Assembly: GCA_049521795.1 (NCBI GenBank)
Contig: JBEKOM010000004.1
Coordinates: 59,078-123,077, forward strand
DNA: 64,000 nt
Direction: 5' to 3'
Source of the DNA: Candidatus Bathyarchaeia archaeon
GTDB lineage: Archaea; Thermoproteota; Bathyarchaeia; Bathyarchaeales; Bathycorpusculaceae
The first letter of the stretch is position 1, and every line of letters starts with the position of its first letter. This document shows positions 10,876-55,831 of this stretch, in pieces. Made by a program: the position numbers and the translations under genes. The notes beneath the pieces are model-generated. The model had not been told where the DNA came from. It worked only from the letters and a program-made list of their open reading frames with translations, and made no database searches.

Positions 10876-12720
10876 ATGAGTATTGCAAAGCCTCTTCTCG
10901 ATTATGCTAAGTCTCTTAAACCGCAGAAGGGTTTCGCGCAGTCCTTTTCGGATTTCAAAAGACTCTTGCATTATCACAGGAGATACCCTTGGCACGTCTC
11001 GGCTATAGTTGTTCTTGCATTGATAAGGTCCATTTTGTTCTCGCTCGAACCATTGTATACCTCCTACATTATCATCTACGTCATAGGACCCCCGACTGAC
11101 ACTAGTCTGTTGATGACCTATCTACTCATTATCGTACTGGCCGGAATAGGCTACGCCATAACAAACTTCATTCTGACTTACGTGCACGGGATAATGTCCC
11201 AGTATATAGTGCGAGACATAAGGTCCGAGTATTACCGTTCGCTTCAGAGCAAATCCTTCAGTTTTTACGATTCTGTAGGCGTTGGAGATCTAACGTCAAG
11301 AGCCACAGTGGACCTTCAATTAGTCGACATGTTTCTGAGAACATGGCTGGGTACCGTTCTTAACGCCATCTTCACAACAATCATCATCGTTGTGATAACT
11401 CTCTCAATAAGCCCGACTATGACCCTGATCTCCATGGCCACGATGCCGCTCATCTTCTATTTCACAACGCGCCTATGGATAGACACGATGCCCCTCTTCA
11501 GAAACATGCAGCTAATCATAGGAAGATTGACTTCATACATACAGCAAAACATCGTCGGAATGAAAACAGTCAGGATATTCCGCCGAGAAAAAGATGTTGT
11601 CGATGGATTCAAAGACGTGGAAGACATATACGTGAACACTGCAATCACCGCGGGCAAAATACAATCAATCTACATGCCACTCGGTCCAGCGATACTCACG
11701 CTTGGAGCAGCACTGGTCTACGTTTACGCAGGAATTACGCTGGGTGTTCCATACTCAGCCCTGGCGGTTGCTCAAATTGGCTACTTGATTCTCTTTGTCA
11801 GATACATGATGAGACTGACCTTTCCCATAAGGGATGTAAGCCAGACTCTTGGCACGTGGATTGCCGCTTACGCGGGATTGGAAAGAGTGCAAGAAATGAT
11901 AGATGCTCCAAGAGGCGTTGAAGACTTGCCTAACGCCAGAGACATTAGGATAGAAAAAGGAAAACTTGAGCTGGAAAACGTCACGTTTGGGTACGTGAAA
12001 GACAAGCCTGTGCTAAATAACGTCACTTTCACTGTGCAGCCAGGTGAAAAAATAGCGATACTGGGCGCAACAGGGTCCGGAAAGAGTTCTCTGATATACC
12101 TAATCCCAAGGTTTTATGACATCCAGGGGGGAAGCATTAGAATAGATGGCACGGATATCCACGAATTCAAACTGGCTTCGCTCAGACGGCAGATAGGCGT
12201 AGTGCTGCAAGATGTTTTCCTGTTTTCTGGAACGATGAAGGAGAACATTGCCTTCGGTAAGCCTGACGCCTCGATGGATGAAATAGTCCAAGCTGCTAAA
12301 TCAGCCAAAATACACGATTTCATTGAATCCCTTCCATCTGGTTACGACACACCTGTTGGGGAAAGGGGGATCACGCTTTCGGGAGGCCAGAAGCAGAGAA
12401 TAACCATAGCGAGAGCGCTCGTGGGCAACCCGAGGATGCTGATAATGGACGATTCGCTCTCCTTTGTGGACGCAAAGACGGAGCAAGAAATTCAATCCGC
12501 AATAGAAGAAGCAACAAAGACAAGGACAACCCTCATAATCGCGCAGAGATTCTCAACGATAAAGACGGCTAAAAAGATACTTGTCCTTGAGAATGGTTCA
12601 GTAGCGGAATTTGGCACCCACGAGGAGCTCATGGCAAGAGATGGCGTCTACAAGAAGGTCTATGAAACCCAGTTTGTCCAAAAAGCTTCACCTATCCTAC
12701 GGGAAGGAGGTGGTTCCTAG
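10876..12720 (+). CDS. ABC exporter, fused TMD-NBD half-transporter
   Basis: Six TM helices, then Walker A GATGSGKSS, signature LSGGQKQR and Walker B LIMDDS. Confidence 0.9.
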   Translation: MSIAKPLLDYAKSLKPQKGFAQSFSDFKRLLHYHRRYPWHVSAIVVLALIRSILFSLEPLYTSYIIIYVIGPPTDTSLLMTYLLIIVLAGIGYAITNFILTYVHGIMSQYIVRDIRSEYYRSLQSKSFSFYDSVGVGDLTSRATVDLQLVDMFLRTWLGTVLNAIFTTIIIVVITLSISPTMTLISMATMPLIFYFTTRLWIDTMPLFRNMQLIIGRLTSYIQQNIVGMKTVRIFRREKDVVDGFKDVEDIYVNTAITAGKIQSIYMPLGPAILTLGAALVYVYAGITLGVPYSALAVAQIGYLILFVRYMMRLTFPIRDVSQTLGTWIAAYAGLERVQEMIDAPRGVEDLPNARDIRIEKGKLELENVTFGYVKDKPVLNNVTFTVQPGEKIAILGATGSGKSSLIYLIPRFYDIQGGSIRIDGTDIHEFKLASLRRQIGVVLQDVFLFSGTMKENIAFGKPDASMDEIVQAAKSAKIHDFIESLPSGYDTPVGERGITLSGGQKQRITIARALVGNPRMLIMDDSLSFVDAKTEQEIQSAIEEATKTRTTLIIAQRFSTIKTAKKILVLENGSVAEFGTHEELMARDGVYKKVYETQFVQKASPILREGGGS

Positions 12721-13781
12721 TGTCAGGTTCGTATGGAACTTTCTCGACGAAAGAGGAAGAGAGAAGAAAAAGAACCGTCCCTGACCGGGTGCTGATCAGA
12801 AGGGTCTACGAGTACGCTCAAGCCCACAAACGAAACCTGCAAATCGGCGTTACCGCCACGATAGCCGGCGCCTTCACCGGCCTAGCTGCCCCCTACATGC
12901 ACGCGATAGCTATCGACAGCATAATAACGCCGAAAAACCTTTCGAGCTTCATATGGTGGATCCCCCTGTTCGCCGCCATCATTCTAGGCAACTATCTCTT
13001 CCAGTACATCCAAACCTATCAAATGCGCATAGTGGGAGAAAAAGTGGTTGCAAAGATGCGGGACGACATGATGGAAAAACTGCAGGTCATCTCTCTCAAG
13101 TATTTTTCAGAAGGCGAAGCTGGGAGAATCATTTCCCGCCCGACCAACGACGCCAACACCGTCAGAATATTCATCAGAGTTGGACTGACGAGCATTCTGG
13201 TAGACATCTCCTCGATACTAGGCGCCTTCGCAATCATGTTCTTTCTTGACCTTCGACTGTCACTTCTGGCCATCTCGGTTCTGCCCGTGGCCATAGTGCT
13301 AGTCTGGTACCTCGGAAAATACTCAAGAGCTGCTTACAGGAGAACGCTAATCACGACTTCAGGGTTGACGGCAAGGTTACAGGAAGACTTGGCAGGCATG
13401 AAAGTCACCCAAGCTTACGCGCAGGAGAAAGAGACAGAAAAGAAGTTCCTAAAGAGTCAAGACGAAAACGTCAAGGCTACGATCAGAGCCATCCTCATAG
13501 GCTCGTCTTACACGCCGTTTGTGATAGCACTGAGGCTGATCGGAACCATGATAATCCTGTTCTTCGGCGTCTACGCCTTGTTGGCCGGAACGATCACGTT
13601 AGGAATTCTCGTAGCCTTTATCGAGTACCAGTTCTCATACTTCATGCCACTGGTTGACCTTGTGACCATGTACGACCAGTACCAGTCGACGATGTCTGCG
13701 ATTGAAAGAATGTTCGATGTGATAGACACGAAAGTCGAAGTCGTCGACGCACCGCCTGAAAGGAGTATCGCGCTCCAATGA
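12720..13781 (+). CDS. ABC exporter transmembrane domain only (partner subunit, N-terminal part)
   Basis: 353 aa with type-I exporter TMD topology. It ends at ...DAPPERSIALQ, exactly where the NBD linker normally continues. Confidence 0.8.
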   Translation: MSGSYGTFSTKEEERRKRTVPDRVLIRRVYEYAQAHKRNLQIGVTATIAGAFTGLAAPYMHAIAIDSIITPKNLSSFIWWIPLFAAIILGNYLFQYIQTYQMRIVGEKVVAKMRDDMMEKLQVISLKYFSEGEAGRIISRPTNDANTVRIFIRVGLTSILVDISSILGAFAIMFFLDLRLSLLAISVLPVAIVLVWYLGKYSRAAYRRTLITTSGLTARLQEDLAGMKVTQAYAQEKETEKKFLKSQDENVKATIRAILIGSSYTPFVIALRLIGTMIILFFGVYALLAGTITLGILVAFIEYQFSYFMPLVDLVTMYDQYQSTMSAIERMFDVIDTKVEVVDAPPERSIALQ

Positions 13782-30213: not shown

Positions 30214-30633
30214 TTGTCCAAGCATCTGAAAGAGAGAGAAGAGAGAATTCAGCAAGTACTAGCGTGTCTGATAGAAGAATCGGCAAAAGGAATTCTCATA
30301 ATCGTAGAAGGAAAGAATGACGTTCAAACGCTGAGACAACTGGGCGTTGGGGGAGAGATAATATCCGCAAAGACAGGCGGAAGGACACGACTGGATGTCA
30401 TCTGTGAAGTGGAGGAAAGCGGGGCCAAGGAAGTGATTATGCTGCTGGACTTTGATCGGCGCGGCAAAGAATGGACAAGAGTGCTCAAGCAACACTTGGA
30501 AAAGGCGAAGATAAAACCCAACCTCACATTTTGGAATGAACTCATGCGGTTCGCAGGCAGAGAGGTCAAGGATGTTGAAGGCCTAGCCTCCTACATTCGA
30601 ACGTTGAAGAAGAAAGCTGGCGAAATACCGTAA
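30214..30633 (+). CDS. small Toprim-domain protein
   Basis: ILIIVEGKNDVQTL ... IMLLDFDRRG (Toprim E and DxD motifs). Confidence 0.75.
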   Translation: MSKHLKEREERIQQVLACLIEESAKGILIIVEGKNDVQTLRQLGVGGEIISAKTGGRTRLDVICEVEESGAKEVIMLLDFDRRGKEWTRVLKQHLEKAKIKPNLTFWNELMRFAGREVKDVEGLASYIRTLKKKAGEIP

Positions 30634-30776: not shown

Positions 30777-31925
30777 ATTACGGGTTCGTCACAGACGTTT
30801 ACTATAAAGTACGTTATAAACGCTAAATTCGAAATTGAAGGTGTAGTTGAAAAGCCGGATGTCATCGGAGCTGTTTTCGGGCAGACGGAAGGTCTTTTCG
30901 GGCCGGAGCTTGACCTTAGAGAACTTCAAAAGTCAGGCAGAATCGGAAGAATAGAGATTGAACTTCACTCTAAACAGGACAAGACAACGGGCAACATAAC
31001 CATTCCAACAAGCTTGGACAGAGTCTCCACGGCTCTGATCGCTTCAAGCATAGAAAGCATAAACAGAGTGGGGCCCTGCGCTTCAAAGGTTACCCTTGAA
31101 AAAATCGAGGATGTCAGAGAAGCGCGGAGAAAAATCATAATCGACAGAGCAAAAGAGATTCTTCACAAGTGGACGATTGAATCCATGCCCTCGGTCGACG
31201 AAGTGTTCAAAGAAGTCTCGGAAACCCTGAAGCTCGGTAAGGTTGAGAAGTACGGGCCTGAGGAACTTCCAGCTGGACCTGGGCTTGAAAGCGCAAAGGA
31301 AATAGTCGTTGTTGAGGGCAGAGCGGACATCATAAACCTGATGCGATGCGGACTGTTGAACACGGTGGCGTTGGAAGGGGCAAAGGTTCCTGAGGCAATA
31401 AAGACGCTCTGCAAGGAAAAAGAAGCCACAGCCCTCCTCGACGGAGACAGGGGCGGAGACTTGATCCTGAAGGAACTGCAGCAGGTAACGGACGTGAAAT
31501 ACATTGCCAGGGCGCCAAGGGGAAAAGAAGTTGAAGAATTGAACTGCAAAGAAATCTTTGACGCGTTGGCGGCGAAGGTTCCTATTCTGGAACAGTTCAA
31601 ACCGCCGAAGAAAGAAAAGCTGAAGGCTGAGGTTCCCAAAGAAATAGTTGAAACGATAAAGACGCTTGAGGGCACTTTAGAGGCAGTTCTTTTGAACGAC
31701 AAGCTTGAACAGGTAGAACGATTGCCTGTGAACCAGCTTGCCGAAAAACTTCAGCAGGCAGAAGGGGTGGACACGGTCGTCTTCGACGGCATCATAACGC
31801 AGAGGATCGTCGACGTTGCAAGCGAGAAAAACATAAAACGAATCATTGCTTCACGTCTATCAGACGCCGTAAAACCATCGTTGACAGTTCAGCTTGTAAC
31901 CTTCCCGGACGTTGCAGAAGGCTAG
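30777..31925 (+). CDS. dnaG: archaeal DnaG-type primase/exosome-associated Toprim protein
   Basis: The conserved N terminus KYVINAKFEIEGVVEKPDVIGAVFGQTEGLFGPELDLRELQKSGRIGRIE lies upstream of the track ORF (31014). The frame is open from 30756. Toprim motifs VVVEGRADI and LLDGDRGGD are present. The start is placed at ATT 30777 (see finding). Confidence 0.85.
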   Translation: MTGSSQTFTIKYVINAKFEIEGVVEKPDVIGAVFGQTEGLFGPELDLRELQKSGRIGRIEIELHSKQDKTTGNITIPTSLDRVSTALIASSIESINRVGPCASKVTLEKIEDVREARRKIIIDRAKEILHKWTIESMPSVDEVFKEVSETLKLGKVEKYGPEELPAGPGLESAKEIVVVEGRADIINLMRCGLLNTVALEGAKVPEAIKTLCKEKEATALLDGDRGGDLILKELQQVTDVKYIARAPRGKEVEELNCKEIFDALAAKVPILEQFKPPKKEKLKAEVPKEIVETIKTLEGTLEAVLLNDKLEQVERLPVNQLAEKLQQAEGVDTVVFDGIITQRIVDVASEKNIKRIIASRLSDAVKPSLTVQLVTFPDVAEG

Positions 31926-34306
31926 TTTCCAAAGAAATCTGAGAGTTTTCTAGTCTCTTTTTCGCCCCCTTTCGACTGCAAGAGTTGCTCTTCTGATATG
32001 CCGAAGCTTTCAAGGATCCTGGTTGCAGCTGGCACAACCTGCTTCGACACGTAGTACTCCAAGTCCACTTCGTCATACGAAGCGAGCATGTACGGTTTGA
32101 CCCTTTCATAGAGCCGCCCCGTGCCCGTAACGATTACAAAACCGATCTTGTCGCCGACGGAAAGTTCCCAGCCCTTCGCCCTAAGCATTTTGGCGGCCTC
32201 AACGTGGGAAGCCTTAACCTCATAATCTTCAGCAGGCTTGGTCAGCGTCTTCCAAATTATCAGGTCTCGGTAAGCAACACGCTTCTGCCTGAGCTCATAG
32301 ATGAACTGCTGCACGAAATCGGCTGCCTTCTTGGGCGACTGTTCCTTCAAAATGATCTCTAAGACTTTTTCCTGCACCTTCTTTGCTATCGCCGCCCAGT
32401 CTCCGCGTACAACTTCCATACCGACGATGTCAAGTCTCCCATCCGGTAAAAGACCAGCATACCGCTTCTTTGCTTCAGTGAAAAAAATGCGCACGTAGAT
32501 CTCGTCAGGTTTGACTTCCAACCCCATTTTCTCCTTTATCTCTCGTGACAGTCTATCAATCTTTTCTGGCTGATTCTCAACAAAAATGCTGTCAGTGTCA
32601 CCGTAGACGACCTTCAACTTCTCTTCTCTGGCCATTTCGATCGCTGTCATTATCGTGTGTCTTCCCCACGCAGCGGCTGCCTCAGCAACAGGCTTCACGT
32701 ACCATCTGGCACCTATCCACCCAGCATAGCCATAGGAGGCGTTGGTTAAGATCTTCACGGCTTTCTGACGAGCATCTAAGACACGATACTCCACACTTCC
32801 CGGCTTGAGCTTACTCATTTTGGGCCGGATTTCGTCTCGAACTTCAATCAGGTAAGACAGAACCTCCTTGTAGAAGCCCGGAGGCTCCCTTCGGAACCTA
32901 TGATTGACCTCAGGAGCTTCGTATGTTCCGCCAGAAGGCAACGGATCATTGGGCGACACGTAGGTGTCCGGCGAGAGGTTATAGTTAATCATTAAGTTTG
33001 GGTACATTGATTTGAAGTCGAGGACAGCGATGTTTTCGTGCAGCCCTGGCTCTGGCTGAAGCACCAAACCGCCCGCGTAGGACCTGTAGGGTTGCTCAAC
33101 TCTCCTGGGCACGAGCTCGCCGATCCCGTGAGTACGCTTTATGAGGAACCATTCCACCCGAAAGCCCGCAGCCGCTGTTCCAACATGGTCCATGGGCAAT
33201 CCTACGAGATTGGAAAGCTGCATGGCGAAGTCCAAAATCGCCTCTGCAATACCCACAATGCAACGGGTATTGTCTGCCGAAAACTTCGCCAAGATCTCGC
33301 GTTTGTCTTCACTGTCCCAGAAGTTTGGGAAGTCTATGTCTTCGATGATCTTTCGGTTCTCAATCTTCATGATACCCAAGTAATCGGCAAGGTTGGCCAG
33401 AGTCTTGACCTTTACCTCTGGAAATTCCTCTGCATAATCTGCAAGGTCCAAGTTTGCCCTTCCAGTCAGCGAAACGTGACCGTACACACTCGTGTGAGGT
33501 TCAGTCTGAGTCCTGTCAACGTACAAGTGTAATCCGAGCTTCTTGCATCTCTCTTTGAGAAAAGGCCAGTCTTGTCCATTGTTGCCGTAACCTACGATTA
33601 TGTCTGGATCGAAGCTTCGAACATACTCCGCAAAAGCCTCCAACACTGGCTTGTCGCTCTTGTCATCGCCGGCCAAGAACTGTTTATGTTCGTCTTTGTT
33701 GGTTGCGGTTGAAACAATTATCACGGGATTTCTGTCTGGTTTAGGCGAACCCTCTCTGCTGTAGTAGATTGATGAAAAGCCCAGTATGCGCAAGGGTGGA
33801 GCTTCAACCTTTTCAAGAAGCTGCGGAAACGATTTTGCTGAGTAAACCTTGTCAATTCGAGCCTTGCTTTTGTTAGGTTCGCCAACCACTTCTGTTTCGT
33901 GCCATCCGCATGGAACAACGTTGTTGTCTATCATGTACCGCATGGTGTATCGAATGTCGTCTTCGAGACAGTCTTTGACGCCTTCGAGCTTTCGAAGAGC
34001 CTTCGCATAATCCTGCATAACATCAGGATTCTTGCAGTAGACCTTCACGGTCCTAACGGGTTTTCCAAAAAACCTTCGCTCAACAATTTCAAGCTTCGAA
34101 ACACAGGGAAAACGACCTTGATCAATTTCGTTAACGACCTTCTCAGGGTCTGCACCGTCTTCAATCACAGCGTAGAAGTACGAGGCAAAGTTCCTGTCTA
34201 TGACAAGCACTCTTTCTCCAGAAGGGGTTACACCCCAGAGCCAGATTTCTGGAACCTCGTCTTTAACCTCGTAGTTCAAGTCTAAGAGCCAAAAAGTGAC
34301 TTTCAT
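31922..34306 (-). CDS. polB: family-B DNA polymerase
   Basis: Motif A LDFKSMYPN, motif B KILTNASYGY, motif C YGDTDS, plus KKRYAG. The exonuclease motifs are degenerate (see finding). Confidence 0.93.
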   Translation of the reverse strand: MKVTFWLLDLNYEVKDEVPEIWLWGVTPSGERVLVIDRNFASYFYAVIEDGADPEKVVNEIDQGRFPCVSKLEIVERRFFGKPVRTVKVYCKNPDVMQDYAKALRKLEGVKDCLEDDIRYTMRYMIDNNVVPCGWHETEVVGEPNKSKARIDKVYSAKSFPQLLEKVEAPPLRILGFSSIYYSREGSPKPDRNPVIIVSTATNKDEHKQFLAGDDKSDKPVLEAFAEYVRSFDPDIIVGYGNNGQDWPFLKERCKKLGLHLYVDRTQTEPHTSVYGHVSLTGRANLDLADYAEEFPEVKVKTLANLADYLGIMKIENRKIIEDIDFPNFWDSEDKREILAKFSADNTRCIVGIAEAILDFAMQLSNLVGLPMDHVGTAAAGFRVEWFLIKRTHGIGELVPRRVEQPYRSYAGGLVLQPEPGLHENIAVLDFKSMYPNLMINYNLSPDTYVSPNDPLPSGGTYEAPEVNHRFRREPPGFYKEVLSYLIEVRDEIRPKMSKLKPGSVEYRVLDARQKAVKILTNASYGYAGWIGARWYVKPVAEAAAAWGRHTIMTAIEMAREEKLKVVYGDTDSIFVENQPEKIDRLSREIKEKMGLEVKPDEIYVRIFFTEAKKRYAGLLPDGRLDIVGMEVVRGDWAAIAKKVQEKVLEIILKEQSPKKAADFVQQFIYELRQKRVAYRDLIIWKTLTKPAEDYEVKASHVEAAKMLRAKGWELSVGDKIGFVIVTGTGRLYERVKPYMLASYDEVDLEYYVSKQVVPAATRILESFGISEEQLLQSKGGEKETRKLSDFFGN

Positions 34307-43651: not shown

Positions 43652-44440
43652 ATGAGAAACTCGAAAGGGAACAGTCTAAGAACTGGTCTGTTGGCAATTC
43701 TTCTGGTAACAGTGTTTGCTCCAGCACTGGTTCATGCTAAAGATTACAAAGTCGGCGTCAAAGCTGGAGACTGGGTTAAATATGGCCAAATCACAATCAC
43801 CTGGGCTGGAAACGGAACTGAGCCTTCATACATCACTGACGAAAAGAAAATGGACTGGGCGCGAATAGACGTCTTAAGCGTTGGAGGCACGGCAGTCAGC
43901 CTGAACTTGACTACTCACTTCAACAACGGTACGCAAACGTTCCAAAGCTCCGACGTAGACGTCCAAAGCGGCGGCGGGATGGGAATGACGACCCTCGTTG
44001 CATCCAACCTGACAATGGGAGACGCGCTTAGCCCACAGATACCCGGAACCACGATAAATCAAACCTTGACAAGAATGTATGCAGGAGCAAACAGAAAAGT
44101 CAACATGCTAGACTCCAAAAATAACTATCCAGGCTACCCAAGCGAAGAAAGAATCTACTGGGACCAAGACACCGGCATAATGGTTGAGCTGTACATCAAC
44201 CAATCAGATTTTAGCAATCCTGGCGCATTCGTAGAACAGTCGATCATAGCAACCGAAACGAACCTATGGTCAGCAAATGCACTCGACCTCATACAGGACA
44301 ATCTAGTCTACATTATCGCAGGCATAGCCGTCATAATAGTCATCGTGGCAGCAACCATCGCTATCCGAAGAAGAAAACCCCCATCTTCCCAACAAGTTCT
44401 ACCTCCACCTCCTTCCGCGCCTCCGCCAACGCCGCCATAA
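43652..44440 (+). CDS. secreted protein with a C-terminal TM anchor and proline-rich tail
   Basis: Signal-like N terminus, several N-x-T sites, and a C-terminal TM followed by RRRKPPSS...PPPPSAPPPTPP. Confidence 0.55.
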   Translation: MRNSKGNSLRTGLLAILLVTVFAPALVHAKDYKVGVKAGDWVKYGQITITWAGNGTEPSYITDEKKMDWARIDVLSVGGTAVSLNLTTHFNNGTQTFQSSDVDVQSGGGMGMTTLVASNLTMGDALSPQIPGTTINQTLTRMYAGANRKVNMLDSKNNYPGYPSEERIYWDQDTGIMVELYINQSDFSNPGAFVEQSIIATETNLWSANALDLIQDNLVYIIAGIAVIIVIVAATIAIRRRKPPSSQQVLPPPPSAPPPTPP

Positions 44441-46735: not shown

Positions 46736-48094
46736 TTAGGGCGGTTTGATTCCAGGATCTGGAGGCGGCGGAACCTGTTGAATCGGCGGCGTGCTGGGTT
46801 TCGGACGCCTTCTGCGGGCTATGAAAACCGCTACTATCGCTATGATCACTATGATCGCGACTATTACTATGGCCAGATACAGTGTGGGGAATGATGATGG
46901 TGACTGCGGCATGACGCTGTTTCCAGCCGAGTCGGTTTTAACCAGGAAGCCATCGTAGATACCGGCGCCGTAAGAATCCGTGAAACCGGCTAACGCGTAG
47001 CCTCCGTCGCTGGTCTGAACAAGTGAGAACGCCTCGTCGTCTCCTCCTCCGCCGTACGTTTTGCTCCACTGCATCGTTCCAGAAGAGTAGGTTTTGACAA
47101 GCCAGAAATCGTAGTTGCCCGCTCCGTAGGAACCTGTCCAGCCGGCTAACGCGTAGCCTCCGTCGCTGGTCTGAACTATGGCGTTTGCCACTTCATCGCC
47201 TGCTCCTCCGTAGGTCTTGTTCCACAGTTGCGCTCCGCTGAGGTCTGTTTTGACAAGCCAAAGGTCGAGGCCGCCTGCGCCGGTAGAGTTCGTGTACCCA
47301 GCTACGGCGTAGCCGTCGCCGGTCTGAATCACACACTCTGCTTCATCGTCCCCTGAGCCGCCGTAGGTCCGGTTCCAAAGCATGTTTCCTAAGGAGTCGG
47401 TTTTAACCAACCAGAAATCGAGGCTGCCCGCGCCGAAAGAGGTCGCGGATCCCGCCCACACGTAGCCTCCGTCGCTGGTCTGAATAACAGAGTAAGCCTG
47501 TTCGTCTCCGGTCCCACCGTACGTCTGGTTCCACTCCATGCTTCCCGAAGAGTTTGTCTTAACCAGCCAAAAGTCGTAACCGCCCGCGCCGTAGGAATCT
47601 GTGGACCCCGCCAACGCGTAGCCTCCGTCGACGGTCTGGATCAAGGAGTATGCAGCGTTTTGTGCTCTTCCTCCGAATGTTTGGCTCCACAGCATGTTTC
47701 CAGAAGAGTCTGTTTTGACCAGCCATGCGTTGGTTTCGCCTGCACCGTAGGAAGTTGTGGTTCCGGCTAATGCGAATCCCGTGTCGTTGGTCTGGATAAC
47801 TGAAAAGGCTCCATCGTCACCTGATCCCCCGTAGGTTTGGTTCCACAGCATCGTTCCAGAAGAGTTTGTCTTAACCAGCCAAAAATCGTAGCCGCCCGCG
47901 CCGCTGGAGTTTGTGTATCCCACTAACGCGTAGCCTCCATCGCTCGTCTGAGCAAGTGAATAGAATTCGTTGTCCCCTTTGCCTCCGTAGGCTTGACTCC
48001 ACCCTGACGCGGCGAAGCCTGACCGAACGCACAAGGCAAAAGTGAACATGCTGATGACAAGAAGACACAGCAGTATTCGGTTCCAGCGTTCCAT
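46736..48094 (-). CDS. secreted seven-repeat (propeller-like) protein with a C-terminal TM anchor and proline-rich tail
   Basis: Signal peptide, then seven units of about 48-52 aa (W.[QK]TYGG.GDD.A.S..QTSDGGYALAG.T.S.GAG..D.WLVKTD..G). The C terminus is SSFPT + TM + RRRRPKPSTPP...PPPP. Confidence 0.75.
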   Translation of the reverse strand: MERWNRILLCLLVISMFTFALCVRSGFAASGWSQAYGGKGDNEFYSLAQTSDGGYALVGYTNSSGAGGYDFWLVKTNSSGTMLWNQTYGGSGDDGAFSVIQTNDTGFALAGTTTSYGAGETNAWLVKTDSSGNMLWSQTFGGRAQNAAYSLIQTVDGGYALAGSTDSYGAGGYDFWLVKTNSSGSMEWNQTYGGTGDEQAYSVIQTSDGGYVWAGSATSFGAGSLDFWLVKTDSLGNMLWNRTYGGSGDDEAECVIQTGDGYAVAGYTNSTGAGGLDLWLVKTDLSGAQLWNKTYGGAGDEVANAIVQTSDGGYALAGWTGSYGAGNYDFWLVKTYSSGTMQWSKTYGGGGDDEAFSLVQTSDGGYALAGFTDSYGAGIYDGFLVKTDSAGNSVMPQSPSSFPTLYLAIVIVAIIVIIAIVAVFIARRRRPKPSTPPIQQVPPPPDPGIKPP

Positions 48095-48308
48095 GAACAG
48101 TCACACTCGACCATCCACGGTTGCTTTCTGATTCTTAAATAAGTTGCGGACACCGCTATCGATCCCAGTTGGACAGTGATAGCTTTGACTGTTCAAGGCG
48201 ACGCCGTCCTCCTCTTCTTGAGGATAATGAGCTTTGGACGCGCAATTCCAAGTGAGGGCGATAAGGTTTCCATAATTCTTATTTGCGTACAAGCGCACAG
48301 AGTACATT

Positions 48309-48627
48309 GGGCTGGCGAGTCGGTGTGTGGCTTTCGAGCCTCGACGAGAGAGGCTTGAGGAAACTCCGCCCACAAGTAGAGTTGCAGCGTCCGCAAGGAC
48401 GCAAGGTGAGAACCTTGGCTCCAGAGCAGAAACGAAACGTCCGCTCAGCAAGTGACGGTGATGCATGTTAAGTTGTTGAGGATGCTGAGTGCGAAGCGAT
48501 GAAACGGCTGACCTGCAAGTGGAAAGGGCAAGCAGACGCTGATGAAGAGTCTACCGGAAGCGCGGGTAGCCCGATTAGCCGAATGCCACAAAGAACAAAA
48601 GGCGGGTTACGACCAACACGCCAGCTC
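48309..48627 (+). ncRNA. rnpB: RNase P RNA (archaeal type A-like)
   Basis: P1 is GCTGGCG (48311-48317) paired with CGCCAGC (48619-48625). P3 hairpin is GGCTTTCGAGCC. CR-I is GAGGAAACTCCGCCC. CR-IV/V is CCACAAAGAACAAAAGGCGGGTTAC, and P4 pairs CCGCC with GGCGG. Length is about 319 nt, with an A/T-rich box 25-35 bp upstream. Confidence 0.8.
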
Positions 48628-48662
48628 TACAAGCAACCCGCCACCCCGACAACGTAACTGAC

Positions 48663-49553
48663 ATGAATAAGAACGGCATCCTTGCCCAATTCTTGATCCA
48701 TTGTCAAAAAACTGCCTTGTCCGAAGAAACCATCAACACCAAATACAAAGTTCTCAGAGTAATGCTCACTAATAACGTCAACCTAAACGACTCTGACCAA
48801 GTTAAGATTTTCATTCACAACCGCAAACAATGGAGTAACGGACACAAAAGCATAGCCGTATTTGCCTATGATGAATACTGCAAAATGAAAGAAATCCAAT
48901 GGACTCCGCCAGAATATCCCAAAAACGAGACTCTACCATTCGTTCCAACTGAAAAAGAAATAGACGCACTCATAAACGGAACAAGTACAAAAGTATCCAT
49001 TACACTGCAAGCACTAAAAGAAACAGCGTTCCGTATCGGCGAACTCTGGAGATGTAAATGGACAGACATCGACGAAGAAAAATCAACCCTGAAATGTAAT
49101 CAGCCCGAAAAGAAATGTGCTCCAAGGGAAGTGCGAATCTCAAGTAAATTGATCGCAAGATTCAACCTTCTACCAAAAACCAACGAGTATATATTCGGTA
49201 AAACGCGCATAAGTGCAACTCGAACAACTTTCTGCAACCAACGTAATAGCCTCGCCAGAAAACTCAACAACCCAAGACTCAAACAAATACATTTTCATAC
49301 CTTTAGACACTACCACGCCACTAGACTCTACAATGAAACAAAAAGTCTTATAGAAGTACAAGCTCGCCTTGGACATCGAAACATAAACTCAACCATGGTC
49401 CATACTCATATTGTACAATTCGATGAAGAGAGCCAAAACTATCATCATGCAATAGCTCGCAATGAAAAGGAAGCTGGCGAACTAATAGACAACGGATGGA
49501 CGTACATCTGCACAACCCCACAGAATGTAATGATGTTCCGAAAACGCAAATAG
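48663..49553 (+). CDS. tyrosine recombinase / phage-type integrase
   Basis: ETAFRIGEL (Arg I), HTFRHYHAT (H-x-x-R), LGHRNINSTMVHTH (the catalytic Tyr position appears to be replaced or offset; needs alignment), plus an N-terminal SAM-like core-binding domain. Confidence 0.85.
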   Translation: MNKNGILAQFLIHCQKTALSEETINTKYKVLRVMLTNNVNLNDSDQVKIFIHNRKQWSNGHKSIAVFAYDEYCKMKEIQWTPPEYPKNETLPFVPTEKEIDALINGTSTKVSITLQALKETAFRIGELWRCKWTDIDEEKSTLKCNQPEKKCAPREVRISSKLIARFNLLPKTNEYIFGKTRISATRTTFCNQRNSLARKLNNPRLKQIHFHTFRHYHATRLYNETKSLIEVQARLGHRNINSTMVHTHIVQFDEESQNYHHAIARNEKEAGELIDNGWTYICTTPQNVMMFRKRK

Positions 49554-49655
49554 CAACAACCTCCCCCTTTTTTATTACCAACACAAAGCGCGCAAAGCTT
49601 CTTAAATCAAACCAAACAAACGAATGAAAGAATGTGCTAAGCAAGAGACAGAGAT

Positions 49656-49982
49656 GTGCTCAAATTGAAAGCAAAGTCAGCCACAGAGAAATCTGAAAAA
49701 GAGGTCCTTTTTTTCCTAGAGCAATACTTTGGCGCAAAAGACATCGAAATAAACCCAAAAGTAGGAGACAAGAAAGCTGACTTCAAGGTCAAAAGCATTG
49801 ACGCATACATCGAAGTTCATGCACTTAAAGACATCGCGAGCGACCAAATGGATATTCTGTCACGAGAAAAGAACATCACTCATGTGAAATTGAAGAATGA
49901 TGGACAAAAGAAGATTCTAGACAGAATAGCAAACAAGCTGCTTCATGAGTGCGCTCAGCTTCCTGAGGGAAAAAAAATCTAA
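49656..49982 (+). CDS. hypothetical protein, possibly the 5' part of a frameshifted gene
   Basis: 108-aa ORF that ends just after an A8 run at 49970-49977. Confidence 0.4.
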   Translation: MLKLKAKSATEKSEKEVLFFLEQYFGAKDIEINPKVGDKKADFKVKSIDAYIEVHALKDIASDQMDILSREKNITHVKLKNDGQKKILDRIANKLLHECAQLPEGKKI

Positions 49983-50053
49983 TCGTAACGAAGACTGAGG
50001 GCCGCTTCCTTTGGCCAGAAGACGTCACTGACACTATTATTGGAGAACCTCAT

Positions 50054-50290
50054 TTGCTTATCAACAAAGAGAACATGCAAACAAGTGTCGGACGTGGAAC
50101 TACTGCTTTCAGGACTGATGAAGAACTTCAAGAAGTGTTGCGGAAGATTTCCGCTGTTCTTGCATACGAAGCGATTTGTCAGCATGGCAAATTGTTGGGA
50201 ATCTTGGGAAATAACAAGAACAATGCTGAAGTTCCTTTTGATGACGAAACCCTTGCAATTTTCAAGAACTTCCTGTGCGATAAATGCTGA
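50054..50290 (+). CDS. hypothetical protein, possibly the 3' part of a frameshifted gene
   Basis: The frame is open back to 49967, so it overlaps the A8 run in the -1 frame relative to 49656-49982. Confidence 0.35.
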   Translation: MLINKENMQTSVGRGTTAFRTDEELQEVLRKISAVLAYEAICQHGKLLGILGNNKNNAEVPFDDETLAIFKNFLCDKC

Positions 50291-50334
50291 AGAGAGAAAG
50301 CTTCATCATACAATTACAGCGCTCCAGCAATATA

Positions 50335-50377
50335 TTGGCTCGTGAGCCGTTCGGCTCACTCGCACGTTCCAGACGAT
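50335..50377 (+). repeat. 43-bp direct repeat, copy 1 (contains a 7-bp-stem hairpin)
   Basis: TTGGCTCGTGAGCCGTTCGGCTCACTCGCACGTTCCAGACGAT. It matches 42 of 43 positions of copy 2. Confidence 0.9.
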
Positions 50378-50421
50378 ACGTCACAAACAGCCGAGCGCGC
50401 GCTAGAAAAAACTCTTTTATA

Positions 50422-50883
50422 ATGAGATACCACTTTAGTCCATGGAAGTTGTCCACCGAGAAGGGTAATCCTCTATTCGGAGCATGGAGGCTGAAATCGC
50501 TTGAAACAAAGGCATCTGACGGATCTGTCTCCTATCCGTGGGGGAAAGAAACTTTTGGCTACGTCGTCATCAGCCCAGAAGGCTACTTTTGCGTCGCAAT
50601 AATGAGCGCTAATCGCAGAAGATTCTCCTCACAAGATATGAAGGGAGGTAGCGCGGAAGAAAGAGCGAACGCTGCAGATTCATACATATCGTACTCCGGA
50701 CCGTGTGAAATCGAGAAAGACAAGTTTCGAGTAAAGGTAGAAGTCAGCCTGTTCCCCAATTGGGTAGGCGGAATCCAAGAACGCAACTACAAGATCGAGG
50801 GAAAAACGCTCTCTGTATCGACTACTCCAACTCTTGTAAACGGAAAAGAACAGGTAGGCTACTTGATTTTCGAACGCGTCTGA
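50422..50883 (+). CDS. lipocalin-like domain protein
   Basis: LFGAWRLKSLE....G.....PWG....GYVVISPEGYF ... and a YSG ... F.V.V pattern typical of the bacterial lipocalin_5-type domain. The ATG is at 50422. Confidence 0.6.
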   Translation: MRYHFSPWKLSTEKGNPLFGAWRLKSLETKASDGSVSYPWGKETFGYVVISPEGYFCVAIMSANRRRFSSQDMKGGSAEERANAADSYISYSGPCEIEKDKFRVKVEVSLFPNWVGGIQERNYKIEGKTLSVSTTPTLVNGKEQVGYLIFERV

Positions 50884-51014
50884 AACTGATCGCGCGCGCA
50901 AGATCAAGCCGAAGTTTTGAAGCCCCAAGATCCAAAACCTGTAAGCCGAGCCTCTTCTAGACTTCGAAAATTATTAAAGCACTATTACGCATATCATATC
51001 TTCTGGGAACATAA

Positions 51015-51107
51015 ATGCCGAAAAAAGACAAACCGTTAACTAAGAAAGAGCGAGACGAGAAAAGGAAGAAACATAAGGAAAAGCAAAGCAAAACACAGGC
51101 TTCTTAA
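51015..51107 (+). CDS. candidate 30-aa Lys/Arg/Glu-rich micro-protein
   Basis: MPKKDKPLTKKERDEKRKKHKEKQSKTQAS. A paralogue lies at 61063-61125(-), and the two differ mostly at synonymous sites. Confidence 0.35.
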   Translation: MPKKDKPLTKKERDEKRKKHKEKQSKTQAS

Positions 51108-51278
51108 GCCCCAAGAAAGAGCTTTGCAAAACTCTTTTTCTCTTTTTTCCATAAAGTTGGCTTCTTTAATGAAATGAAAGAAAGACGCGTCAGCTTTGGA
51201 TATTATTGGCTTCCTCCATTAATGCGAAAGAAATATGTTTTAGTTTGTTTATTTATCGTTAATTTGTAGCTGAGATTC

Positions 51279-51407
51279 ATGCCGAGTGTAATGAAACGTA
51301 AACAAAAGAATACTCAAATCGCACAACAGAAAAAGAAAGAACGAGATAAAGAAGCGAAAAAGAAACAGTTGAGACAGCAACTTCCTGCCAAGGGCAAGAA
51401 ACGTTAA
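51279..51407 (+). CDS. candidate 42-aa lysine-rich micro-protein
   Basis: MPSVMKRKQKNTQIAQQKKKERDKEAKKKQLRQQLPAKGKKR. The call rests on composition only. Confidence 0.25.
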   Translation: MPSVMKRKQKNTQIAQQKKKERDKEAKKKQLRQQLPAKGKKR

Positions 51408-51433
51408 AGCCACTAAAGGAGCGCGCGCTCATC

Positions 51434-51476
51434 TTGGATCGTGAGCCGTTCGGCTCACTCGCACGTTCCAGACGAT
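51434..51476 (+). repeat. 43-bp direct repeat, copy 2
   Basis: TTGGATCGTGAGCCGTTCGGCTCACTCGCACGTTCCAGACGAT, 1099 bp downstream of copy 1. Confidence 0.9.
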
Positions 51477-51962
51477 GAGTCAAAGCCAAACCAACCGCAC
51501 AATAAGCATTTCCGCCTGTCGCGCTCGCATCACGCTCGCGCTCCCACCCACAAAAACTCAAAACAATAACTAGCAGACGCTTATCAGGTAAGGATAAGAC
51601 TTTGCCCTCAGACTGTGCAGTTTTCTCGTCCCCCCTGTTTTTTTCAGTAACGTTTTTGGTAATGTTGTGTGGTAACAAGTCTTGAAGAAGCGGACAGGCG
51701 TGGGGAACAAGACTTCAGCTCTACACCGTAACGAACCAGCACTACTATCCTAATAGCGTTTTTTTCCTAAGCATTCCATTCTAGATCTCTTCATGGTTTT
51801 CTTGGCTGTACTCTCTATTGTCCGCTTCCACCCTGACGCTAAGGGGTCCGATTCTTGCAAGTGGCGGTAGGATATGAGACAGCAATTGCTCTGCACTTAG
51901 TGGGCGAAGTGTACCATTCAGACTGATCTGCGTCCAATCAGTCTTTTCTTTGCGATATTTCT

Positions 51963-52367
51963 GTGTCCAGCCGTGTTTGGTCGTGCGCGCGTGCTATGGT
52001 TCAGATTCCGAGAATGAGACATGGAAGCAAACAGACAATTGAAACATTGATTAATGAAGAGGCTTACTTGTTTGCGAAGTTTCTGAGATGTGAACGAGAA
52101 ACATGGGTTCCAAGAATAGTGAGCCTTCAAGGAAACATGGCTACTATCAGCACAAACCTCGGAACGTTGACAGGCACTGTTACCAGCATAAACAGCACGG
52201 TCGCTACGATCCAAACAAGCCTCGGAACTCTTGAAGTCACTGATCAAGGAGTCAAAAGCTCGTCGGACACAACAGGAAACTACTCCTTAGCCGCATCAGC
52301 CCTTTCAATCATCAGCATAATAATTCTGCTTGCCGTCGCAATTCAAGTGTTCAGAAAACATAAGTAA
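51963..52367 (+). CDS. hypothetical protein with a C-terminal TM anchor
   Basis: Repeated I.T.LGTL motif, then a TM helix. The start is uncertain; an internal Met (MATIST) is possible. Confidence 0.4.
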   Translation: MSSRVWSCARAMVQIPRMRHGSKQTIETLINEEAYLFAKFLRCERETWVPRIVSLQGNMATISTNLGTLTGTVTSINSTVATIQTSLGTLEVTDQGVKSSSDTTGNYSLAASALSIISIIILLAVAIQVFRKHK

Positions 52368-52592
52368 ACCCAAAATTACCTAGTTTTCTTCTATCGTTCT
52401 TTCTTCTCCACAATCATGCGCATGCGCGCGAGCCCAATCCCATGACTAATGGATTTGACTTTTGCAGATTTGATAGAAGTGTGTCGATACGACAGTGCGA
52501 AAACAGAGAGGACTGAGTTAAAGTGGTTCTCGAGCATCTATGTTTCTTGTTCTCTCCAAACGCCCGCGCCCACATTTCAGGTTGTCTGGTTT

Positions 52593-53447
52593 CTATGTCT
52601 TGCCTTTTGCAACGAAGATTGCAAGATGTGCAAGACGATGACGCTTGACCTTGCGGAAGTAACGGGATAACAAAGATTCAGCAAATGCGTAGTCAAGTTT
52701 GGTCTTATCCTCTTCCAAGACTTCGTGTTCCACTTTCTCAACAAATTCCCCCATCGTTAAGGGGTAATTGTCCTTGTTCGGATGAGAATAAGGAACGATG
52801 AACGCGAGACTTCCGTCCTTCTTCAAAACACGGTGTAACTCTTTCAGGGCGCGGTGGACATTTTCGGGTTCGCCATGCACTCTCACGGCATCAACAAAGT
52901 TATCCTTTAGGGATATGTTTTCAACAGGGGTATCAAGAACAATGAGGTTTGCGCATTCGATGCTCAGCTTCACGGACTTGGGCTTGACCAAGTAGATTTT
53001 TCCATCCTCAACCACGTTGCCTAAGGATGATATCATCCAATCATAGAAGACTTTAGGTGCAACCACCAAGATTGTGTCGCCTCTGCCAACTTGCGAATCG
53101 AGCAATCGTTGCAGTTTTCGAATAGCACTCTTCTCAGGAGGAAGTTTCGACAAATACTGCATGTACTTGACATGAATAGTTTTGACTGCTTCCTTCAGCT
53201 CTTGACCCAGTTGATTCGTACCTTTCTTGCCGAGCCTGTACACCTTCCTTTCAGGCCCAAGGGCGCTTTTCATTCGGGTAGCCTCCAGATAGCCCTCTGT
53301 CTCCATCTCAGTGAGCACTCTATAGAGGTAGCTGATATTCGGCCTGAAGTCTCTCGCTGCCAATTGTTTTTGGACCTCATAGCCGTGCATTTCTGCGGTG
53401 CCAAGCATCTCTACAATCGTCTTCTTCAGATAGTCTTTGTGCATCAA
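52593..53447 (-). CDS. PadR-type winged-helix regulator fused to a methyltransferase-like domain
   Basis: N terminus: HGYEVQKQL......ISYLYRVLTEMETEGYLE....KS..GPERKVYRLGKKG. C terminus: ILVVAP ... FVDAVRVHG ... LKELHRVLKKDGSLAFIVP. Confidence 0.7.
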   Translation of the reverse strand: MMHKDYLKKTIVEMLGTAEMHGYEVQKQLAARDFRPNISYLYRVLTEMETEGYLEATRMKSALGPERKVYRLGKKGTNQLGQELKEAVKTIHVKYMQYLSKLPPEKSAIRKLQRLLDSQVGRGDTILVVAPKVFYDWMISSLGNVVEDGKIYLVKPKSVKLSIECANLIVLDTPVENISLKDNFVDAVRVHGEPENVHRALKELHRVLKKDGSLAFIVPYSHPNKDNYPLTMGEFVEKVEHEVLEEDKTKLDYAFAESLLSRYFRKVKRHRLAHLAIFVAKGKT

Positions 53448-53488
53448 ACAAACCAGCTATTCGAAAATCAGTACTATAGTGACATCAT

Positions 53489-53512
53489 CTTAGGCATTTA
53501 TAGGTTCCTAAG
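53489..53512. promoter_or_regulatory. inverted repeat bracketing a TATA-like box upstream of the PadR-fusion gene
   Basis: CTTAGG-catttataggtt-CCTAAG. On the minus strand the centre reads CCTATAAATG, about 50 nt upstream of the start at 53447. Confidence 0.35.
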
Positions 53513-53708
53513 CCCCTCATGTTTCAAGCCGGAACACAAAACAGAATAACGTGAAAAAATGAGAAAAACGAAATCATTATTGCCGATAATCTCAGGTATT
53601 CATTTGCCATCCATATTCTTAGCTGCACCTAGCTTTGCCTGCAACACAACGGGCTTAAGTGGTGCGTTCGCGTGTGCCTCGCAATCATAGCACGGGGGAG
53701 AAAAGCCT

Positions 53709-54284
53709 GTGACACAGCCTCAAAGCACAAGGGCTTCAACCAGCAAAGTTGGCGGGATCATGGGACCGAGCTCCATTCTGACTTTGGCTGTCCCCGTGGT
53801 CGCACTGATCGTGGCGCTGTTGAGCAGAAGCCTTCTTCTCCTGACTTATGTTCACGTACTCACCGGCGGAACTTGGACTGGCATAGACCTGTTTATGGGA
53901 CTGGTCATGAGCAGAGTGCTGGGCAGTCTCTCCACTCAAAGCCGCGTTGAGGTCATAAAAAAACTCGTGCCGATCATGTTGTTCTTCATGCCTGCGCTGG
54001 CTTCGGTAGCCATAACTGCCGGCGTTTACCTAGCAATCAGTCTGGGTTGGAGTTTCTTCTCCACTCCAATAATTGCGGCATTTATCATCGTGATCATTCT
54101 ATCGGTCCAAGGCTTTGGTCTGATACTGCCAAACGAGGTTCGCGTCTTTCTCGAGCTCAGGAAGCCAAACCCAGACACAGAGAAGATTGTGAAACTTGGC
54201 ATGAGAAACTTCTACTTCGCTGGCAGCCAGACGGTATTCCAGATCGCAATCATATTTGTGATGGCCTATATGGGCACCATATGA
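53709..54284 (+). CDS. integral membrane protein
   Basis: 191 aa with about 5 TM helices. No family recognised. Confidence 0.55.
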   Translation: MTQPQSTRASTSKVGGIMGPSSILTLAVPVVALIVALLSRSLLLLTYVHVLTGGTWTGIDLFMGLVMSRVLGSLSTQSRVEVIKKLVPIMLFFMPALASVAITAGVYLAISLGWSFFSTPIIAAFIIVIILSVQGFGLILPNEVRVFLELRKPNPDTEKIVKLGMRNFYFAGSQTVFQIAIIFVMAYMGTI

Positions 54285-54411
54285 TGAAAAAAACGTTTGG
54301 ACCTGTACCCGTTTGGTCTTAAGAGTAAAGTCTTGTCCCAAACCCAAACGACTAAGCGCGTGCTACTGAACGACCGTCAATAATACTCTTAGAAAAAGAC
54401 GCGCTAGAAAA

Positions 54412-54897
54412 TTATGTAGCTTTGCCTTCTTTACAATAGTAGCTCATTGGTTTACCTTTCATTAGATTGAAGTCCTTGAAGACTTGGCATCCGCTGCAAA
54501 TGCACATCTTGTTGAAATCAAGGTCTTTACAAACTGCAACGCCGTTAGCGCAGTATGGTCCAGGCATATCTTCCGCTTTAGGCATCATCAAAGCAATCTG
54601 TTCCTTTGGCGTGTTCCGCATCATTTCATCGCTCATGTTCTTCATCTGTTCCCTGGACATGCTCCTCATCGTTTCAGGACTCATGTTTTTCATCATTTCC
54701 AAGTTCTGCATCATTCCAGGGGTCATGATCTTCGATATTTCAGGGCTCGGGTTCTTCATCATCTCATCCTTCGCTATTATTTTAGGTTTGGCACACGCAC
54801 TAATAGCCTGGACTGGACACATTGCGCACTTGCATTTCATTATCACATCATAAGTCAATAGAACCTTAGGTCCTGCCTTATGCCCAAAAAGATTCAA
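54412..54897 (-). CDS. Cys-rich protein (DUF2769-like) with a Met-rich repeat insert
   Basis: CKCAMCPVQ ... YCANGVAVC...CICSGCQVF...YYCKEGKA. The central MMKN[PM]SPE repeats contain many Met residues. Confidence 0.6.
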   Translation of the reverse strand: MNLFGHKAGPKVLLTYDVIMKCKCAMCPVQAISACAKPKIIAKDEMMKNPSPEISKIMTPGMMQNLEMMKNMSPETMRSMSREQMKNMSDEMMRNTPKEQIALMMPKAEDMPGPYCANGVAVCKDLDFNKMCICSGCQVFKDFNLMKGKPMSYYCKEGKAT

Positions 54898-55732: not shown

Positions 55733-55831
55733 ACGGTTCTTCGCTGCCTGATTATCTACAAAAAGAACGCGCGCGAAGATTACTCTATCCTCGTAAGGAA
55801 ATAGATTTAGGAAATAGTCGGTCTATCGATT

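Follow-up and report, generated by a model that had tools for sequence, protein, structure and literature searches.

Family-B DNA polymerases with a dead 3'-5' exonuclease are well known and include Pol alpha, Pol zeta, the C-terminal half of Pol epsilon and PolB2 (Kazlauskas 2020; 2025 in-silico study). Pol alpha and Pol zeta are full-size enzymes that possess a folded, dead exonuclease domain and function beside proofreading replicases (Kazlauskas 2020), and the exonuclease-less Dpo2 protein inserts nucleotides accurately, yet extends mispairs. Among PolB3 enzymes, Dpo3 was reported with 3'-5' exonuclease activity, and the polymerase of structure 5mdn has been termed PolB3 (Kazlauskas 2020). 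A convergent dnaG gene is the single conserved neighbourhood of polB3 and is found in most Crenarchaeota (Makarova 2014). A description of an exonuclease-dead PolB3 in Bathyarchaeia or in archaea of the TACK group (Thaumarchaeota, Aigarchaeota, Crenarchaeota, Korarchaeota) was not found in the literature, nor was any passage that explicitly credits Bathyarchaeia with PolD. The gene examined here is located on the minus strand at positions 31922-34306 of a 64,000-nucleotide stretch (the window) of contig JBEKOM010000004.1 from a Candidatus Bathyarchaeia archaeon. The product is a full-length archaeal family-B polymerase that, from sequence, tree and dnaG synteny, is assigned to Bathyarchaeia as their orthologue of the TACK/crenarchaeal PolB3. 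Its exonuclease site was probably destroyed in the ancestor of the class, with the protein serving as an accessory polymerase beside PolD. The gene and its exonuclease motifs are as follows.

31922-34306, minus strand: polB3 gene, family-B DNA polymerase of 794 amino acids with an ATG start (open reading frame, Pfam, 5mdn match, AlphaFold model)
33764-33778, minus strand: degenerate Exo I, FSSIY, amino acids 177-181, with Asp changed to S178 and Glu to I180 (5mdn and 4ahc alignments, exo-intact profile)
33557-33586, minus strand: Exo II, GNNGQDWPFL, amino acids 241-250, with D246 retained and the motif Asn and Phe changed to G241 and Q245, respectively
33266-33283, minus strand: degenerate Exo III, FSADNT, amino acids 342-347, with Tyr changed to F342 and the catalytic Asp to N346

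The protein matched PF00136 (DNA_pol_B) with 209 bits (cutoff 23; E = 1e-61) and PF03104 (DNA_pol_B_exo1) with 74 bits (cutoff 23; E = 1.5e-20) in Pfam. The best match in the PDB by phmmer was 5mdn, the PolB3 of Pyrobaculum calidifontis, which aligned end to end (E 5e-220, 736 bits) and was identical at 46% of all aligned positions and at 40% of those within the exonuclease domain. FDIEV, NGFDWPYL and YVLDD of 5mdn paired without gaps with FSSIY, NGQDWPFL and FSADN, respectively. When the exonuclease domain alone was compared with the PDB, the engineered exonuclease-minus Pfu polymerase 4ahc, which carries FAIAT, fell in the same register as FSSIY. The register was assessed independently with a hidden Markov model (HMM) derived from 77 relatives in which the DEDD residues are all intact. 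The three Exo motifs aligned to this exo-intact HMM at posterior probability '*' throughout (fDiEt/FSSIY, FDlpyl/QDWPFL, YnlkD/FSADN), no Asp or Glu was placed at the catalytic positions of Exo I or Exo III, and acidic residues were not regained under any alternative register. Only D246 is kept among the five residues of the DEDDy set (Exo I Asp and Glu, Exo II Asp, Exo III Tyr and Asp), such that three of the four DEDD carboxylates have been lost along with the catalytic Tyr. An earlier note on this DNA had proposed that Exo I FDIET is replaced by FSSIY, that Exo III is replaced by FSADNT and that only the Asp of Exo II survives in NNGQDWPFL, and each of these replacements was recovered in the alignments. 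The enzyme is predicted from these residues to be exonuclease-dead.

The pattern separates the protein from described PolB3 enzymes, as 5mdn, Pfu and KOD polymerases keep DEDD at the positions where the Bathyarchaeia protein has S/I for D/E in Exo I, G/Q for N/F in Exo II and F/N for Y/D in Exo III. It resembles instead the engineered exonuclease-minus D141A/E143A derivatives of Pfu, KOD and Vent polymerases (4ahc), in which the neutralising changes affect this same pair of Exo I positions (FAIAT compared to FSSIY). The D141A/E143A changes alone yield the standard exonuclease-minus archaeal polymerases, and the expected properties of such enzymes are absence of proofreading and increased strand displacement. 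The Bathyarchaeia state differs from the engineered one in being natural and ancient, in the additional loss of the Exo III Tyr and Asp and the Exo II Asn and Phe, and in the conservation of the replacement residues.

The motifs of the polymerase site, and a C-terminal element, are located as follows.

32996-33019, minus strand: polymerase motif A, DFKSMYPN, amino acids 430-437, with metal-binding D430 and steric-gate Y435 intact
32729-32755, minus strand: polymerase motif B, KILTNASYG, amino acids 518-526, with K518, N522, Y525 and G526 present
32588-32605, minus strand: polymerase motif C, YGDTDS, amino acids 568-573, with both catalytic Asp residues intact
32459-32470, minus strand: KKRY motif, amino acids 613-616, primer/template contact (sequence alignment)
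31931-31954, minus strand: PIP-box-like TRKLSDFF, amino acids 785-792, putative PCNA tether (family conservation, model)

The motif A Asp, the K...N..YG residues of motif B, the DTD of motif C and KKRY were invariant in an alignment of 121 sequences described below, and the Y-GG motif also is present in the query. The view that motifs A, B, C and KKRY are canonical thus was borne out: all of the strings were found, and Asp-430, Asp-570 and Asp-572 occur in 121/121 sequences. The site, in which a steric-gate Tyr and motif B are combined with DTD, Y-GG and KKRY, is of the replicative, accurate-insertion type. The proposal that the enzyme is exonuclease-dead and polymerase-competent agrees with every sequence, profile and fold test that was run. 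The residues of the uracil pocket were inspected by eye in the PDB alignments: Y12, Y42, P94 and I118 are kept, and P36 and V93 are changed to S and M, respectively. At the extreme C-terminus, the Q position of the Qxx[LIM]xx[FY][FY] consensus is not Q in TRKLSDFF, and the tail is conserved as xxxLxxFF in 120 homologues and as ..QTLLEFFG in a group with 61% identity to the query. In the AlphaFold model, residues 780-786 have predicted local distance difference test (pLDDT) values <50, denoting a disordered linker, and residues 788-791 form a short helix. The tail looks like a PCNA-interacting element.

A homologue search over ~5.8 billion proteins produced 120 clusters with 73-95% identity to the query, which together with the query constituted the 121-sequence alignment. 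A few bacterial labels aside, named members of the clusters are labelled Bathyarchaeia or Bathyarchaeota. At the former catalytic positions, S178 was found in 120/121 sequences, I/V/L180 in 121/121 (I in 117/121), F342 in 120/121 and N346 in 121/121. D/E246 was present in 116/121, and TEAKKRYAG, like D430, D570 and D572, in all. The same four substitutions occur in the closed 2.35-Mb chromosome OY970176.1 (2,346,764 bp) of the Danish-soil metagenome-assembled genome (MAG) Ca. Bathyarchaeota MFD03726.bin.c.13 (95% identity), in SPRUCE peat MAGs (94, 76 and 75% identity) and in hot-spring Bathyarchaeia MAGs at 61% identity. The Pyrodictiaceae homologue (49% identity) retains FDIEV and Y..DD, and DEDD is retained in the Pyrodictiaceae, Sulfolobaceae, Pyrobaculum and Korarchaeota homologues. 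Ratios of nonsynonymous to synonymous substitution rates (dN/dS) were determined by the Nei-Gojobori method for five close pairs with unsaturated dS, and were 0.08-0.18 in the exonuclease domain compared to 0.06-0.10 in the polymerase domain. As values of 0.08-0.18 denote constraint, the dead exonuclease domain is held by selection and is not decaying. The exonuclease-dead state is fixed across Bathyarchaeia, in which respect the enzyme differs from characterised PolB3 proteins, and the domain itself is under purifying selection. Bathyarchaeia polB3 genes with 74-93% identity also were observed on short contigs labelled Acidiferrales bacterium (DASPPK010000014.1), Zixibacteria and Acidobacteriota (P0064, P0115). 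As these contigs are short and the genes are 74-93% identical to those of Bathyarchaeia, the bacterial labels are probably binning errors.

An AlphaFold2 model built with a diverse alignment of 103 sequences had a mean pLDDT of 93.0 and a predicted template modelling (pTM) score of 0.87, with values of 84-98 in the blocks of the exonuclease domain. The model superposed on 5mdn with template modelling (TM) scores of 0.87/0.90 and on the KOD and 9N polymerases with TM scores of ~0.84/0.87. As this confident model superposes on all three structures, the exonuclease domain is modelled as folded and complete, with only the chemistry lost. The protein shares with PolB3 (5mdn, Sulfolobus Dpo3 and more distantly Pfu, KOD and 9N) the N-terminal, exonuclease, palm, fingers and thumb domains, along with all polymerase motifs, Y-GG, KKRY, a C-terminal tail that is putatively PCNA-binding and a convergent dnaG as for crenarchaeal polB3. 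Retention of a dead but folded exonuclease domain is a likeness to Pol alpha and Pol zeta. However, the latter carry C-terminal metal-binding domains and B-subunits, whereas the Bathyarchaeia protein has no such C-terminal domain, and the likeness implies no evolutionary link.

Assignment to PolB3 rests on several lines of evidence. The query scored 736 bits with 5mdn, ~364 bits with PolB of Thermococcales and 159 bits, confined to the polymerase domain, with Dpo1/PolB1 of Sso (1s5j). A search of 1.84 billion cluster representatives recovered relatives down to ~30% identity from which a bootstrapped neighbour-joining tree with anchors was constructed. In this tree, which included no PolB1 or PolB2 sequences, the Bathyarchaeia proteins were monophyletic (bootstrap 100) and sister to an exonuclease-dead Culexarchaeia protein (100), and the clade nested within TACK-type PolB3 with 5mdn and the Sulfolobaceae, Pyrodictiaceae and Korarchaeota homologues with modest basal support (62). 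The phylogenetic placement suggested in the earlier note hence locates the protein in the PolB3 clade, with PolB1 and PolB2 outside the tree. The neighbouring gene is as follows.

31014-31925, plus strand: archaeal dnaG (Toprim primase/exosome subunit), 303 amino acids, convergent with polB3 (NF003108)

The dnaG reading frame matched NF003108 of NCBIfam with 334 bits against a cutoff of 300. The stop codons of polB3 and dnaG interlock in a 4-bp overlap, CTAG, so that the description of a full-length gene of 794 codons in tail-to-tail arrangement with dnaG holds in both the open reading frame and the NF003108 match. Convergent dnaG was located directly downstream in every related locus that reaches past the 3' end of polB3, including that of Pyrodictiaceae, and is absent in Culexarchaeia. 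On one side of polB3 are the genes for AOR and Pelota, and on the opposite side are those for DnaG, TyrRS and a small Toprim protein. This housekeeping synteny (PheRS, TyrRS, Toprim, DnaG, PolB and Pelota) is kept in related loci. The small Toprim protein (30214-30633, plus strand; 139 amino acids; a PRK04017-like 'hypothetical protein') is encoded upstream of dnaG, in a position that is kept in related Bathyarchaeia loci.

Degenerate exonuclease sites extend beyond the Bathyarchaeia clade. The full-length representatives numbered 103; the set of four carboxylates is complete in 77 and incomplete in about 30, and the exo-degenerate representatives keep the polymerase aspartates with the single exception of P0247. 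Named MAG labels in the exo-degenerate clusters are Bathyarchaeia (P0131 type), Culexarchaeia, Nitrososphaerota and Thermoplasmatota. The exo-degenerate TACK sequences group together weakly in the bootstrapped tree and, because of this, the number of losses within TACK cannot be counted. A first neighbour-joining tree had placed P0122 as the nearest exo-intact relative and had divided the exonuclease-dead TACK proteins between two clades, details that the bootstrapped tree did not support. Five proteins (P0169, P0173, P0177, P0185 and P0200), two of which are labelled Thermoplasmatota, are exo-degenerate and polymerase-intact. As they are nested separately among exo-intact sequences (bootstraps 95 and 81), this Thermoplasmatota group represents an independent loss. 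The former catalytic positions, fixed within Bathyarchaeia, are W/T, G/L or K/L in sister lineages, with R at Exo III, a variety of residues that matches the pattern expected after loss of function.

Three further loci were observed among the homologues. On L019 (6001-8316; GCA_038849055.1, Bathyarchaeia), the P0131 exo-degenerate PolB3-like protein of 771 amino acids with 42% identity to the query is encoded without a dnaG neighbour. This second type may be either a paralogue that coexists with the first or the PolB3 of other Bathyarchaeia orders. On L020 (6001-9544; JGI Ga0315296_10000001), the gene for exo-degenerate PolB3-like P0133 (772 amino acids) overlaps by 26 nt with the next gene, which encodes a 416-amino acid DHH-family (RecJ/GAN-like) protein, and a DNA ligase gene is sited 2.2 kb further downstream on the opposite strand. 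The P0133 and DHH-family genes may form an operon that couples an exonuclease-dead PolB to a separate nuclease. On L018 (~11722-12863; Pyrodictiaceae WAQK01000043.1), an insertion of ~380 codons splits motif C (YGD...TDS) of the exo-intact PolB3 homologue. The insertion may be an intein, as this is a site at which inteins are known in PolB.

The polymerase inventory proposed in the earlier note was pursued in the window and on other Bathyarchaeia contigs. Among open reading frames of at least 200 amino acids in the window there was no second polymerase and no stand-alone DEDD nuclease. Two DP2 segments of P. abyssi were verified against the PDB before use, and tblastn with a verified segment gave no match in the window or in the fetched loci. 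A DP2 profile constructed from two frameshifted metagenomic DP2 genes recovered 120 DP2 fragments, five of which were labelled Bathyarchaeia or Bathyarchaeota; the largest of these first DP2 contigs was an 850-kb Bathyarchaeota contig. A stitched DP2 query of 1136 amino acids recovered 120 full-length DP2 proteins with at least 80% identity on contigs up to 2.9 Mb. The conserved neighbourhood on these Bathyarchaeia contigs reads Elf1, PcrB, DP2, MazG and Sec61-beta, PcrB being present on most of the contigs and SHMT on four. Orc1/Cdc6 is encoded near DP2 on L026, L030, L034 and L035, and DP1 (Metallophos plus DNA_pol_E_B, 518-534 amino acids) on L030 and L034, where the flank shows DP1. As DP2 proteins are abundant on contigs labelled Bathyarchaeia or Bathyarchaeota, PolD is common in Bathyarchaeia. 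DP2 was called as two open reading frames on L026 (7416-11059), L029 (2273-5684) and L030 (5914-9284). A genuinely split DP2 gene was rejected: the break points differ among contigs and coincide with a 100-N gap or frameshifts, which indicates an assembly artefact. In tetranucleotide composition, the DP2 loci L029, L031 and L035 correlated with the exonuclease-dead PolB3 locus P0111, whose PolB3 is 74% identical to the query, at r = 0.89-0.91. The corresponding values were 0.87-0.98 between loci of the 61% identity group and 0.97 between the window and its closest relatives.

A mechanism is proposed in which the DEDD 3'-5' exonuclease site was lost in the ancestor of Bathyarchaeia, with the fold, the polymerase site and the putative PCNA-binding tail retained. 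The enzyme would polymerise DNA through its accurate-insertion site without excising its own errors. Being unable to remove a mispaired 3' end, it would therefore extend mismatched or lesion-paired termini, much as Dpo2 does with mispairs in biochemical assays. Exonuclease-minus family-B enzymes perform strand displacement rather than idling at nicks, and the Bathyarchaeia protein similarly would not idle but would displace downstream strands. Bound to PCNA, it may act as an accessory enzyme that fills gaps, matures Okazaki fragments through strand displacement, synthesises DNA during repair or extends primers once a lesion has been bypassed. PolD with its DP1 nuclease would be responsible for bulk replication and for proofreading, and errors would be corrected in trans by DP1 or other nucleases. 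The exonuclease domain may have been retained for structural reasons or for the handling of DNA, which would parallel Pol alpha and Pol zeta.

The earlier note had considered that, if the protein is the main PolB of the organism, its fidelity strategy would be unusual. That the enzyme is the main replicative polymerase, operating without intrinsic proofreading and with another fidelity mechanism, would fit with its being the sole polymerase gene in the 64-kb window, full length, strongly conserved and under strong purifying selection with a putative PCNA-type tail, and with the location of the observed PolD genes on other contigs. However, DP2 is abundant on Bathyarchaeia and Bathyarchaeota contigs, including megabase-scale examples, with adjoining DP1 on L030 and L034, and certain DP2 contigs match the P0111 exonuclease-dead PolB3 lineage in composition. 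PolD also is encoded by all archaea except Crenarchaeota (Makarova 2014), PolB is non-essential in those PolD-bearing archaea that have been studied, and Sulfolobus PolB3 is likewise dispensable, being linked to 4-nitroquinoline 1-oxide (4-NQO) sensitivity. With PolD common in Bathyarchaeia and PolB and PolB3 dispensable in these model organisms, the protein is unlikely to act as the main polymerase and to depend on an unusual strategy for fidelity. An accessory role beside PolD is likely and the most economical explanation. Several points nevertheless weigh against this preferred interpretation. PolD was seen on other Bathyarchaeia contigs and is not placed in the genome of the window or on any contig with this PolB3: the DP2 list and the exonuclease-dead PolB3 loci share no contig, assembly or accession series, and the DP2 loci L029, L031 and L035 correlated with the window at r = 0.67-0.79. 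The inventory covered the window and PolD; as PolB1, PolB2 and PolY lay outside it, the enzyme may bear more of the replication load than is proposed. Both the absence of exonuclease activity and the competence of the polymerase are predicted from residues. The conservation of D246 and of an acidic residue at position 345 (D/E345) makes some residual metal binding possible.

The resemblance to PolB2/Dpo2 that had been noted earlier is fair as a functional analogy, since both are family-B proteins known or predicted to polymerise DNA while the exonuclease is inactive, and the two are likely functional analogues in accurate insertion and in tolerance of mispaired ends. Membership of the PolB2 mutasome family as a translesion polymerase is a different matter. 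Dpo2 biochemistry shows an extender function, certain TACK members of PolB2 keep DxD and a fairly complete, inactive exonuclease domain, and those with intact DxD are the closest to PolB3 (2025 in-silico study). PolB2 enzymes lack Exo III and do not conserve Exo I, their motif C usually has one Asp and is accompanied by D(K/R), and their genes share an operon with iRadA and PPB2 (Kazlauskas 2020; 2025 in-silico study). In contrast, in the Bathyarchaeia protein Exo III can be located and aligned (posterior probability '*'), the replacement Exo I residues are conserved and motif C is DTD; the D(K/R) motif was not specifically searched for. No iRadA, RadA-like or PPB2 (arCOG07300, ~90 amino acids) gene was found at the polB3 flanks in the window or in related loci with listed genes, where AOR or another gene lies upstream and dnaG, a signature of PolB3, downstream. 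With its 794 residues, 46% identity to a PolB3 structure and position beside 5mdn and the Sulfolobaceae and Pyrodictiaceae homologues in a tree that included no PolB2 sequences, the protein was rejected as a PolB2 member, an assignment that we regard as quite improbable. A further alternative is that the exonuclease site has been rebuilt from other residues or with different chemistry and still proofreads. The strong purifying selection on the domain and the conservation of D246, D/E345 and invariant N346 are compatible with this idea, for which the D(K/R) compensation proposed in the PolB2 polymerase site offers a precedent (Kazlauskas 2020). However, the S, I, N and F that replace three DEDD carboxylates and the Tyr cannot bind two metals, the two Exo I changes that suffice in engineered exonuclease-minus enzymes affect the positions aligned in register with 4ahc, and the W/T, G/L, K/L and R residues of sister lineages denote drift and not a new conserved catalytic set. 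A rebuilt site is very doubtful accordingly. An artefact is scarcely credible, be it a pseudogene, a product of faulty sequencing or assembly, or a polymerase that is viral or mis-binned. Although a few homologous contigs are labelled Zixibacteria, Acidobacteriota or Acidiferrales, these are the short contigs attributed above to binning. The reading frame is unbroken in the window as well as in >120 clusters that derive from independent projects, the closed chromosome among them, dN/dS is ~0.1, and the housekeeping synteny is conserved.

Elsewhere in the window, a phage-type integrase (PF00589; 48663-49553, plus strand) is encoded at the start of a stretch at ~48000-56000 in which the G+C content is 0.44-0.46 compared to ~0.49. 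This low-G+C stretch may be an integrated element. Open reading frames of 452 (46736-48094, minus strand), 262 (43652-44440, plus strand) and 226 amino acids (59927-60607, minus strand) matched no Pfam family at E <= 1e-5.

In anoxic sediments and soils, Bathyarchaeia rank with the most abundant archaea, and to our knowledge nothing is known experimentally of their replication. The reading of the protein as an accessory PolB3 with a destroyed exonuclease site offers a testable case of labour shared between PolD and an exonuclease-less PolB, and a natural model for the retention of dead exonuclease domains that can be compared with Pol alpha and Pol zeta. As the predicted exonuclease-dead form is clade-wide, selectively maintained and otherwise intact, PolB3, the most widespread archaeal PolB, is not always a proofreading enzyme. 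An exotic fidelity mechanism is not implied by an exonuclease-dead PolB3. Bathyarchaeia polB3 genes should not be annotated as proofreading replicases, and naturally exonuclease-minus PolB3 scaffolds may be of use in polymerase engineering. More tentatively, PolB3 may have turned in Bathyarchaeia, Culexarchaeia and possibly more widely in TACK into a proofreading-free, PCNA-tethered polymerase that shares labour with PolD in a manner akin to that in eukaryotes, in which the exonuclease-dead Pol alpha and Pol zeta operate next to proofreading replicases and errors are corrected in trans, and may replace PolB2 as the extender of mismatches and lesions. If so, the separate loss in Thermoplasmatota would mark this as a recurrent evolutionary solution.

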